A DNA stretch of 64,000 bases from Escherichia coli. Its GTDB lineage: Bacteria > Pseudomonadota > Gammaproteobacteria > Enterobacterales > Enterobacteriaceae. This document shows positions 29,496 through 32,981 of the stretch, piece by piece (the first letter of the stretch is position 1; the number at the start of each line of letters is the position of its first letter). The position numbers and the translations under genes were made by a program. The stretch lies in the NCBI RefSeq assembly GCF_048403405.1, contig NZ_CP183135.1; one strand, given 5' to 3'. The notes beneath the pieces were generated by a model. It was not told the DNA's origin and searched no databases. It saw nothing but the letters and a program-made list of their open reading frames with translations.

Positions 29496-30018
29496 AATAT
29501 AGGGGCAAATCCACATCCTTACTTTTCCGTAAGGATTTTAGCGGGTCAAAACAGCGTTCCATGCCGGACTGATGATCTACATACTTAGAGTCACATACCA
29601 AAGTAAAACTATGGATGTATGCAAGCCTGCATCGTCAGGAGGTTAAATTTCAGACCTGCCAGTTACCGCGTAAATGGCTTGATATATGACTAATTTATTT
29701 GCACAGGATTTTTACGACAACGCTCTGAACCAGCAGTTGACGGGATATATAGTTGAGCTCATTACAGATAAAGCTTTTCTGTATCTCTGGCGGTGGTCAT
29801 AGACCAGTAATCGTTATTGGTTGTTCTATATTATCCCGTATGACGGTACAACGTTTTTAACAACTGGCGCTGTCACAACATAAGCCACCCCAAAATATTA
29901 TATGAGTAACAATAGTCTATATAGGAGCGTAAATTACCTACTATCAAATACTTACTCCAATAGCATTTCTGTCTATTCTATTTCAATTCTTTAATAGAAA
30001 AATAAGGTTAGATAATAT

Positions 30019-30291
30019 ATGACTCCCTCCCCCTATCCAAGAAATAACTTTAATACAGAGCTAATTCAATCATGTATGAATGGAGAACACTTTTCACTTT
30101 TAATTGAAATATCACCAATCAGAAGTAAAAAAAACATCATGGCTCTTAAGGAGTATTTGGTTGATGGTTATTCAAAGCAAGAAAGTTGTGAAAGGAACAA
30201 TGTTTCCATTAGTTATTTTTGCCTATGCCTAAAAAAACTAAACTATACACACAGTATTGTTAGTGCTCTTAAATATTTCTACCGTGAGTAA
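30019..30291 (+). CDS. small PapB/FaeB-family-like transcriptional regulator (orphan, in low-GC island)
   Basis: ...HFSLLIEISPIRSKKNIMALKEYLVDGYSKQESCERNNVSISYFCLCLKKLNY... resembles the PapB core HFFLLIGISSIHS...AMKDYLV.G.S..E.C; no fimbrial genes nearby. Confidence 0.4.
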   Translation: MTPSPYPRNNFNTELIQSCMNGEHFSLLIEISPIRSKKNIMALKEYLVDGYSKQESCERNNVSISYFCLCLKKLNYTHSIVSALKYFYRE

Positions 30292-31137
30292 ACTGTAACT
30301 GAAGTCTTGATTCTTACGCTTAGACACTGCTAAGCCGTTATGGCATAGCTGATAATTTATATTGCACTATGTCAGCTACTGTAAGATAATATAAGCTATT
30401 TTAAAGAAAACTCTGTCATTCATCATTTTGTTTAATGATAGGTTTTGTTATTAATATAAAAGAACATGCTCATTCATTAAAATAAAAACAAGATGTTCTT
30501 TTATTATTTTCATTCCCTACGGGGTTAGTCCTTGATTCATTTTCAGTATCTTCTAACTCATTCATTTGCCGATTACTTTAATTCACAGTCTTGTTTTTTA
30601 TCCTGCCTATTGGAGATAAAAGTGGTATCGATGGATGCCGAGTGTGTTGCACATGCAGTATTCTCAGGAATAAGAACTGTCACTTCCAAAACACGCGATA
30701 TATGATTGAATCTCTGTGGGGGGATAAAAACTTGCCTTTTTCCGCAGTCTGAAAACAGGATGGGGGCGACGGATGGTTACGCAGGCAAGGGCGAGGTTCG
30801 GAAATAAATCAGAGATTATATTCTGAATTATTACAATAGCACCAGACCTCACCATTACAACGGTAGTTTGACGCTGGAGGGATCAGAAAACAGATACCGT
30901 TTTTACTGTAAACGGTGGTCATATATGGACTCTCCTGGTGATATAAGTACTGGTTCGAAACGGTTTACGACTATATATCCGGCGTCATCAGTAGGTTCAA
31001 TGAACCGCGCAATAATGTTATCCGAGCCCTGTTTCCTAATCACTACGCCGGTATTTGATTAGCCAAGTCAAGTTCATCTTGCCATCACTATTTTTCCATA
31101 CCGCATTACTATCTAATACAGTCGCACGAGCGGCCTT

Positions 31138-32306
31138 CTAATTTGAGGGTTTCGAGCCCTGAAGAGGCATATCCCATCGTTTTACAGATATTGCAGAAAT
31201 TGGTACGCAATATGCTGCTTCTTCCTGGAGTTTCTTCCTGGTATTTGTATCGAAGTCTACATTAAGCAGGTCGAACTTCCAGCTTTCCCGATAAAACCTT
31301 ATAATATCCTTGGGACAAAGGAGAATAAACTGGTTTGTCGTAAACATAGAAACAGCCTGCACAGAGTAATATTCCCCCGGTTTTATATTTTTTTTACCCC
31401 ATACTGCATTGGAAAAAAACTCCTCCGGATATTCACTTGTTTTAATAATGTAGCTATGTATTTTGAAGTCACTTATACCTGAGAGCTTAATAACTGAATG
31501 GGTAAAAATTACTGGTAATACGGTTATTTGAGTCGATATAACTAATAATATCATCAAGGATGCGACAAATGCAGAACTAATTCTTTTAGAAAGTTTATGC
31601 TGTGGATTCATTTTTAGATAAATGAGGCCGGGAAGTATTGTCAGAATAAAAATAAAATATGACATGAAAGCCAGTTCAGCTATCACTTTGAAATTAATAC
31701 TCTTATCTGAAGTTTCAATATTCCTAAAAACCATCTCCAGTGGAATTACCTGAAGATGCACCAGTAAAGCAATAGACAACGGAATGATAAGATAGATCTG
31801 AACACGTCTCAACAGTTTCATTCTATTATTTTTAAACGATAAGTCATATTCAAGATACCTCGTGTTTATTATGGCTGAAATAACAACTATTAGTACTCCT
31901 ATACTTAAAATAGATAACCAGCCAGAGTTATCTTTAACACTCTGGTCAAAATCAAATGCACAGTATAACACGTATATAAAGGCCATGGGGAAGAGGCCAG
32001 ATAACATCATTACAGATAAAAAATTACCCTGAATCTTATTGTAAGCAGGAAGATTTTTTATATCATAAGGAATAACTATTGGTATAAAAAAAGATGTTAT
32101 AAAAAAATAAAAATGATCATAATCAATGATAGAATAGTTGTACAACAAACCAATACCAAGATGCTTTTAATATTCATCACATCAAAGAAAATATCAAGTC
32201 GATCCAGACGACTGAAATATCCCCAGAGAACTATCAACGCAATCCCTGATATAATACTTGATGGTGTTAATACTGAAACTATTAGCGTCTTCCACTTCTG
32301 ATTCAT
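31138..32306 (-). CDS. hypothetical polytopic membrane protein with ~110-aa C-terminal soluble domain; frame broken in an A7 run (~32085-32107)
   Basis: Two overlapping minus-strand ORFs (32097..32306 and 31138..32148) that both look like TM segments; low GC; no family recognised. Confidence 0.4.
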
Positions 32307-32981
32307 TTTAACTTCCTGGTTTTGCTATAAAGAGAGCATAAAAAAGAGTGAATAAGTTATTACACTTCATTGTTTGACTCCTCGCAGTAACCTTTCAGGA
32401 AGGTTGTCGGATATTTTTGATAAATTATGTCATAAACATATTATTGTAAGTAATGATTTCACTAAATTTATTTGATCGTCGTCATAATATTTTTAATCTG
32501 AATATAGAAGATGATTGTGTCATATGCAGTATGATATAAAACGTTAAAAGTGACTGAATAGATAACAGTTCATGCATGAACAAGACCATAACATAACATA
32601 ATAAAATATGCTTATTATGCATAACCTTATGTTGTGACTAAGCCGCCTTAAAACTGAGAAGTAGCTAAGAATATGGCGTCAGACACCTTCAGTTGTCGTA
32701 GAAGGTTATCTGCAGGATTTTTCTCCGTATCTGCCTGTTCCTGGCATTACCCCAATTCTCCCAAAAACGGCAAACCAGCCCTCAGCCCGCGCCACGACTG
32801 GCTTAATACGGGATCCCTGCTGCAAAACATACCTTTACGTATTTGGTTTTACCCGCAATAATGCGTGATAAGCAAACAAAAGGATCCGCGCGCTGCGATT
32901 TATTGTCGTGGAAGGATCCGGGCGTTCAGGTCAGAATACCTGTATCCATAAACAGTGCGTGTGCTACGTGAAAAATAACTC

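Follow-up and report, generated by a model that had tools for sequence, protein, structure and literature searches.

The segment at positions 29496-32980 of a 64-kb stretch of Escherichia coli DNA (contig NZ_CP183135.1; the whole stretch of 64,000 nucleotides is called the window below) consists of two AT-rich cargo modules that are unrelated to each other and form a mosaic on an IncF (RepFIB) backbone. The first module carries a gene for a PapB-family regulator that is already in the literature, whereas the second carries a gene for a 389-amino acid (aa) membrane protein (WP_001072358 family), which belongs to a genuinely unassigned family. Thus, what had been taken for an island resolves into one known gene and one widespread gene, for the product of which a testable hypothesis can be given; the copy in the window is frameshifted. 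The membrane gene is most simply read as a one-gene accessory moron carried by mobile elements. It is tentatively proposed, at somewhat less than an even chance, that its product is an envelope-level exclusion or defence protein, which would block phage or other foreign DNA.

A preliminary description of the segment, made from the nucleotide sequence, had noted ~3.5 kb of low-GC DNA between a truncated insertion sequence (IS) IS2 and the int gene beside RepFIB. The borders were found as described, and the GC content was 36.1% as compared with 50.1% for the whole window. The mean GC content of 1-kb intervals was 0.502 (standard deviation 0.056), and the lowest value in the window, 0.307, falls within the membrane gene. 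The AT-rich DNA is present at 29.6-30.6 kb (GC 0.33) and at 31.1-32.66 kb (GC 0.29-0.33), and the tail of the segment (32661-32980, ~320 bp, GC 0.48) is the upstream region of int. Since IS debris splits the segment into these two AT-rich modules, it is not one unit, and the earlier idea of a single cargo island is given up. The foreign origin that had been suggested for the cargo is reasonable, given the low GC content and the flanking IS scars.

Distribution on plasmids

The segment is a regular component of IncF plasmids. In PLSDB, at least 770 plasmids cover at least 80% of a 3.7-kb query, and more than 1000 records match at 99% identity or higher. Among 5426 complete E. coli genomes, 791 contained the membrane-gene segment, with 795 matches, of which 791 were plasmid-borne. 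The membrane gene is thus carried by about 15% of the completely sequenced genomes of this species, nearly always on a plasmid and intact.

Another allele of the membrane gene (WP_001072355), with 93% nucleotide identity, was present in ~390 plasmids. On one of them, pECO-824, this allele adjoins the same int and RepFIB and has a RelE/ParE pair on its other side, and no papB gene was found around it. Because the 93% allele adjoins int and RepFIB without papB, the membrane gene is taken to travel with int/RepFIB rather than with papB. A functional link between the papB paralogue and the membrane gene was rejected for the same reason and because of the IS debris between them.

Sequence state of the membrane gene

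The membrane gene of the window is split into open reading frames (ORFs) of 69 aa (32097-32306) and 336 aa (31138-32148). The frame is broken in an A7 run, as the preliminary description had stated, and most plasmids have A8 at this site and encode the intact 389-aa protein. The complete E. coli genomes gave 794 matching records, of which 762 were exact to the A8 flank (96%), 20 to the A7 flank (2.5%), and the rest to neither. The 20 complete plasmids with A7 were varied in size and host source, and truncated products of this allele are on record as proteins of 290 aa (from 202 contigs) and 282 aa (from 990 contigs). Since A7 is so rare relative to A8, the window copy is a minority null allele.

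A second homopolymer deletion (G6 to G5) was observed at 28289 in a gene for a TonB-dependent receptor of the haemoglobin/transferrin type (26807-28776, minus strand). Compared with two near-identical plasmids, the G5 run divides this gene into ORFs of 454 and 168 aa. The occurrence of two homopolymer frameshifts within 4 kb (28289 and 32101) makes homopolymer sequencing error possible, although the A7 allele recurs in independent assemblies. The membrane gene in the window could be either a true null allele or a product of such an error. On the plasmid pUM146, the papB paralogue (locus positions 2957-3207) is annotated as frameshifted and the membrane gene (4075-4947) has the A7 allele, both genes being disrupted.

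The dN/dS ratio (nonsynonymous to synonymous substitution rates) between the two IncF alleles, WP_001072355 and the common one, was 0.29. The membrane gene is thus real and under purifying selection. It had been considered that both ORFs of the segment might be non-expressed, decayed remnants, and in this explanation they would be silenced by H-NS in an insertion graveyard beside RepFIB. The frameshifts in the membrane gene and the nearby receptor gene, the IS scars, the disrupted pair in pUM146, and an IS5 element that interrupts the membrane gene of a Klebsiella plasmid are consistent with decay, and very AT-rich DNA is a typical target of H-NS. However, 96% of the copies of the gene are intact and show 100% conservation, and the dN/dS ratio between its alleles argues against decay. 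In addition, the papB paralogue is intact in the window, and a phenotype has been reported for its product after cloning. It is thus improbable that the two genes are remnants, and decay or silencing would concern this copy only; what stands of the earlier suggestion is that the window copy is frameshifted.

The A run might instead be a contingency locus, where slipped-strand mispairing turns the expression of the membrane protein ON and OFF. The break is an exact 1-nt change in an 8-nt homopolymer, and the recurrence of A7 in complete plasmids and of the truncated products in many contigs would be compatible with such phase variation. It should be noted, however, that A7 accounts for a small fraction of the copies, that three further runs of 7-8 nt in the gene have no reported variation, and that sequencing error or clonal inheritance accounts for the A7 allele equally well. 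Moreover, as a substrate for efficient slippage in E. coli, a run of A8 is short. Phase variation is therefore very improbable.

The ATG codon of the membrane gene is preceded at a distance of 5 nt by AGGAAG, a good match to a Shine-Dalgarno sequence, and a promoter scan of the 5' region gave matches at chance level only. A fim-type invertible promoter between int and the membrane gene was rejected, since only imperfect inverted repeats of 10-14 nt were found there, at chance level and typical of AT-rich DNA. The two genes are divergently transcribed, and this layout recurs in Enterobacter and Lelliottia plasmids. Functional pairing of the membrane gene with the adjacent tyrosine recombinase is not favoured, because the integrases adjoining different homologues are only remotely related (19% identity) and other homologues have no adjoining recombinase. 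The arrangement is treated as co-location in plasmid maintenance regions.

Predicted architecture of the membrane protein

Hydropathy and the positive-inside rule predicted seven transmembrane (TM) helices, a cytoplasmic N-terminus, and an outside location of residues ~275-389. This agrees with the ~390-aa multi-TM protein with a C-terminal domain that had been recognized before. AlphaFold2 modelling with family alignments yielded a predicted local distance difference test score (pLDDT) of 77.5 and a predicted template modelling score (pTM) of 0.66 for the whole protein, and 86.7 and 0.76, respectively, for the C-terminal domain, which was modelled as a small beta-sheet/barrel packed with two helices.

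Conservation was evaluated in 52 family sequences with identity down to ~15%. Only P226, G277, C331, and C367 were invariant in all 52 sequences; W28, S72, W303, L329, and P332 were near-invariant, and an R36-x-D38 motif and D280 were common. The well-conserved residues W28, Y30, R36, D38, D280, and W303 are located in predicted periplasmic loops or in the C-terminal domain, and the conserved residues are predicted to gather on the periplasmic face. Because the two invariant cysteines are in a predicted extracytoplasmic domain, they probably form a disulfide bond (C331-C367). The membrane protein is thus predicted to be an inner-membrane protein with seven TM helices and a disulfide-stabilized periplasmic C-terminal domain of ~110 aa. 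The lack of any invariant, potentially catalytic polar residue among the 52 sequences argues against an enzyme, and the protein would not be enzyme-like in its action.

Searches for relatives

Homology to a characterized family of mundane function, which would have given the membrane protein an ordinary role, was not found by profile, sequence, or Foldseek searches. Pfam revealed nothing significant with the 389-aa query alone (best i-Evalue 1) or with the 52 members searched singly (none at E<=0.001). There was no match in NCBIfam and none in the PDB by sequence, and the best match in the PDB by profile was a designed membrane-protein binder (E=0.0035). Likewise, no transporter or enzyme family was matched by sequence or fold in Pfam, NCBIfam, and PDB. 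These results, together with those from PADLOC and PHROGs given below, agree with the preliminary description that the protein has no recognizable motifs.

Foldseek against AFDB50 gave 113 matches at E<=1e-3 from Enterobacterales and Pseudomonas, and among the matches listed, none was informatively annotated. The sequence family is small and patchy, with 113 representatives at 50% clustering, and nearly all of its named members seen were from Enterobacterales. Scanning genome contigs for conserved-peptide patterns, of which few exist, detected 8 loci. A literature search by the accession of the membrane protein gave nothing useful, nor did a search of IMG/VR with the homologue P0099 from a P2-like prophage as the query. 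One contig labelled as a Collinsella metagenome-assembled genome encodes a 413-aa family member by genes for gentisate/3-hydroxybenzoate catabolism and a PcaK-type transporter. Since all other members seen are proteobacterial, this contig may be mis-binned.

Genomic contexts of homologues and possible function

About 15 contexts of homologues were sampled opportunistically. P0099, which is 27% identical to the membrane protein over its full length, is encoded in a P2-like prophage, where its gene has gpG on one side and the sheath gene FI on the other and is carried by the opposite strand. The site is that of the classical Z/fun hotspot of P2 (bioRxiv 10.1101/2024.10.15.618418). The same prophage carries a Septu system at another site (PtuA, E=3.5e-92; PtuB, E=1.5e-64), which lies between the baseplate gene V and the tail gene S (locus positions 12894-14634). 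A 413-aa relative closes a lambdoid prophage just past the tail-fibre genes. A Dickeya member is located in a satellite-like element (int, AlpA, primase), where it adjoins the defence candidate PDC-S31, and in Trabulsiella the member is next to both the Mrr-like candidate PDC-S02 and a type I restriction-modification system. On Enterobacter plasmids, one member adjoins a type II CBASS system, and another has BrxR and an E1/E2/JAB protein near it. The Xenorhabdus members are found in an integrative and conjugative element (ICE), where they follow immediately after traG in the same orientation and have genes for a reverse transcriptase and HsdR in the vicinity. Two contigs of Xenorhabdus hominickii showed an identical ORF layout over ~9 kb around the homologue, which suggests that this genome has two copies of one ICE.

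The family thus shows the accessory-hotspot carriage that is typical of exclusion and defence morons as a functional class. No conserved partner gene was found across the sampled contexts, which fits a single-gene system. Because of the placement in phage and defence hotspots and the predicted conserved surface facing the periplasm, envelope-level exclusion is the best supported function. The membrane protein would hinder the entry or establishment of incoming phage, and possibly of other foreign DNA, at the inner membrane or in the periplasm. Exclusion, abortive infection, and surface modification had been proposed earlier. Exclusion or defence stands on the circumstantial evidence of the homologue sites, which suit abortive infection and entry blocking alike, while surface modification is disfavoured by the lack of an enzyme family match and of an invariant, potentially catalytic polar residue.

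The superinfection-exclusion and moron membrane proteins (P22 SieA, T4 Imm, HK97 gp15, phi80 Cor) offer the closest parallel. They too are products of single, AT-rich genes in mobile-element hotspots by tail genes, and they share with the 389-aa protein a predicted inner-membrane location and a conserved surface facing the periplasm. However, there is no similarity in sequence or fold, and the likeness is limited to carriage and predicted location. The 389-aa protein is also much larger, with seven TM helices and a folded periplasmic domain in the predictions. P0099 occupies the same G-FI hotspot as P2 fun(Z), on the opposite strand, as fun(Z) is. Fun(Z) is an unrelated protein of 528 aa with a P-loop-like GxxGxGKT motif, and homology to it was rejected on the basis of hhalign (probability 0.4%, E=0.14).

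Several points weigh against envelope-level exclusion. None of the 5027 models of PADLOC-DB v2 matched the 389-aa protein at E<=1, and PHROGs gave no match. No match to the membrane protein was found by tblastn in 50,697 deposited phage genomes, and IMG/VR contained a single matching locus. The family members are without any known phenotype, and the superinfection-exclusion proteins known to date are of much smaller size. An argument from neighbouring genes is weak evidence, and the contexts were sampled opportunistically; about half of them were neutral, with defence genes absent nearby. The neutral contexts include single-gene islets flanked by metabolic genes (Enterobacter, Brenneria, and others), sites after LemA/TPM genes, an IS-flanked E. 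coli islet, and a Cronobacter plasmid. The periplasmic placement of the C-terminal domain and its disulfide bond are predictions only, and the published papB phenotype described below is indirect. The bolder claim, that the protein founds a new single-gene family with seven TM helices that acts against phage or DNA entry via a novel disulfide-bonded periplasmic domain, is rather unlikely at present.

The neutral contexts agree with a different explanation, in which the membrane protein has an accessory role on mobile elements unrelated to phage, such as immunity to a bacteriocin or contact toxin, envelope stress, transport, or sensing, and the proximity to defence genes reflects clustering of cargo. 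The absence of matches to defence hidden Markov models would be expected in this case, and the structural relatives in AFDB50 reach Pseudomonas and are all uncharacterized. Nevertheless, no toxin, transporter partner, or regulator is conserved alongside the homologues, and the protein matches no transporter or enzyme family. If the role were one of housekeeping, the positions in the Z/fun hotspot and at a prophage end would be hard to account for. An unrelated accessory role is therefore judged doubtful, and it is the most likely of the alternatives, followed by decay or silencing of this copy, conjugative entry exclusion, and phase variation at the A run.

Entry exclusion of the TraS/Eex type would require that the membrane protein in the recipient inner membrane recognizes a mating-pair protein of the donor and blocks redundant transfer. 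TraS of F and Eex of SXT/R391 are likewise inner-membrane proteins of conjugative elements, and the carriage of the membrane gene by conjugative IncF plasmids, the Xenorhabdus homologue just after traG, and the predicted inner-membrane location with a conserved surface towards the periplasm are in line with this function. In contrast, the neighbours of the gene in the window are IS debris, int, and RepFIB, with no transfer gene, and homologues are also present in prophages, in a satellite-like element, and in chromosomal islets without conjugation genes. The protein has no homology to TraS or Eex and is at least roughly twice as large, as both of these are ~150 aa. Moreover, F-like plasmids encode their own TraS and TraT. 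The features of this class are a small protein encoded in a transfer operon by traG, and only the Xenorhabdus ICE homologues follow traG. Conjugative entry exclusion is accordingly quite improbable for the membrane protein.

The resistance and virulence genes of extraintestinal E. coli, ST131 among them, are carried mainly by IncF/RepFIB plasmids. If the membrane gene blocks the entry of phage or DNA, it would affect the host range in phage therapy and plasmid competition in clinical lineages. Envelope-level exclusion by this protein, if true, would also add a new protein architecture to this mode of exclusion.

In Enterobacter/Lelliottia-type plasmids, a homologue with a divergent integrase was observed 1-5 kb from a chaperone-usher fimbrial operon with EAL and MarR-like regulators. 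This second, loose association of the family with fimbrial loci is probably coincidental.

The PapB-family regulator

The 90-aa ORF of the first module matched Pfam PapB (PF03333) with E=1.5e-32 (residues 12-88 to model positions 15-91 of 91) and phrog_10566 in PHROGs with E=1.8e-32, which bears out its earlier assignment as a PapB/FaeB-like regulator. By its sequence, the ORF is identical to the papB/pefB paralogue of pMB2, and the published primers for cloning of this paralogue match the window at 30022-30040 and 30266-30289 (PMC7734786). Its product, WP_001322642, appears in a 2025 review as 'pBM2 PapB-family' (a misspelling of pMB2) and 'Orf G' (PMC12388093). The view that the segment is cargo of unassigned function thus holds for the membrane gene, and not for the PapB-like gene.

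Monarrez and Okeke (2020) described the pMB2 gene in a low-GC segment between mobility genes with a 'conserved hypothetical' neighbour, and fimbrial genes were absent nearby (PMC7734786). The window matches pMB2 in the protein, in the low-GC IncF setting between mobility genes, and in the orphan state; there is no material difference, and the window represents another copy. The cloned paralogue lowers the hyper-autoaggregation of a deletion plasmid, and the effect is lost in a fim-deleted host (PMC7734786). According to this published work, in which the evidence is indirect, the PapB paralogue acts in trans on the host and damps autoaggregation that depends on type 1 fimbriae. Since the regulator has been characterized previously, this half of the segment brings nothing new.

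The paralogue shares the Pfam family, the size, and the predicted DNA-binding fold with PapB of the pap operon and its relatives PefB, FocB, SfaB, and TosR. It is ~29-32% identical to PapB and PefB, and trans-acting cross-talk to type 1 fimbriae has been reported (PMC7734786). In contrast to the pap operon, it lacks a papI partner, fimbrial structural genes, and an upstream GATC pair. Nothing fimbrial was found among the annotated neighbours and the large ORFs sampled in the window, as had been noted earlier, and the sole ORF of more than 800 aa in the window is a Tn3 transposase. Because the PapB profile is matched and a cognate fimbrial operon of the papI-papB type is lacking, the protein is an orphan family member. 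The first module would thus provide a small, predicted DNA-binding regulator without its own fimbrial operon. A Dam/Lrp phase switch of the Pap type, which has two GATC sites, was rejected, since the only GATC within 29111-30881 is at 29574.

Other features of the region

The coordinates of the features are given in Table 1.

Table 1. Features in and around the segment 29496-32980 (coordinates refer to the window)
Feature	Position	Strand	Evidence or remark
Truncated IS2, left boundary	29058-29496	+	TnpA/InsC and an orfB stub ending at ~29496
AT-rich leader 5' of the papB paralogue	29497-30018		GC ~0.33
Orphan papB/pefB paralogue, 90 aa, WP_001322642	30019-30291	+	Pfam PapB, phrog_10566, RefSeq
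IS debris patchwork between the two AT-rich modules	30601-31137		GC 0.439
IS3-family transposase remnant (3' end of the gene)	30736-30926	+	Nucleotide comparison, RefSeq
389-aa membrane protein gene (WP_001072358 family)	31138-32306	-	ORFs, intact homologue, predicted topology, AlphaFold2
A7 run (T7 on the coding strand), -1 frameshift site	32101-32107	-	Alignment to the intact A8 allele
AT-rich 5' region of the membrane gene	32307-32660	-	GC 0.291
62-aa ORF, doubtful gene	32673-32861	+	Conflicting annotations
int, small tyrosine recombinase, right boundary	32982-33722	+	Xer-like NCBIfam matches, RefSeq annotation
RepB-family (RepFIB) initiator	34007-34984		Right of int

At the left boundary, the TnpA/InsC frame of IS2 (29058-29423) is intact (NCBIfam NF006928, IS2 repressor TnpA, 276 bits), and the equivalent stretch of pUM146 is labelled in RefSeq as an incomplete transposase pseudogene. 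The IS debris is of normal GC content, and its sub-segments match separate, unrelated plasmid loci. The IS3-family remnant within it showed 81-86% nucleotide identity to annotated IS3-family transposase genes, and its counterpart in pUM146 is an IS3 pseudogene in RefSeq. The 62-aa ORF upstream of int has been labelled 'hypothetical' or, spuriously, 'Ser/Thr kinase', and it had no match in NCBIfam, PADLOC, or PHROGs. An Rfam search over 28.5-35.5 kb gave nothing useful.

The interval that separates the 62-aa ORF from int (~32862-32981) may be a recurrent insertion site: several plasmids that are identical in other respects have an ISL3-family element there, either ISKox3 or ISEc53. The ISEc53 copy adjoins a gene of the ClbS/DfsB family. 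At the start of the window (1-1200), a further low-GC stretch (1-kb GC 0.34) adjoins an IS4-family transposase gene (1089-2216, minus strand). Five GATC sites, with spacings of 11, 11, 11, and 13 bp, were found at 35289-35338, a short distance past the RepFIB initiator, and they resemble an array of Dam-methylated repeats such as would belong to the origin of replication or the iteron region.

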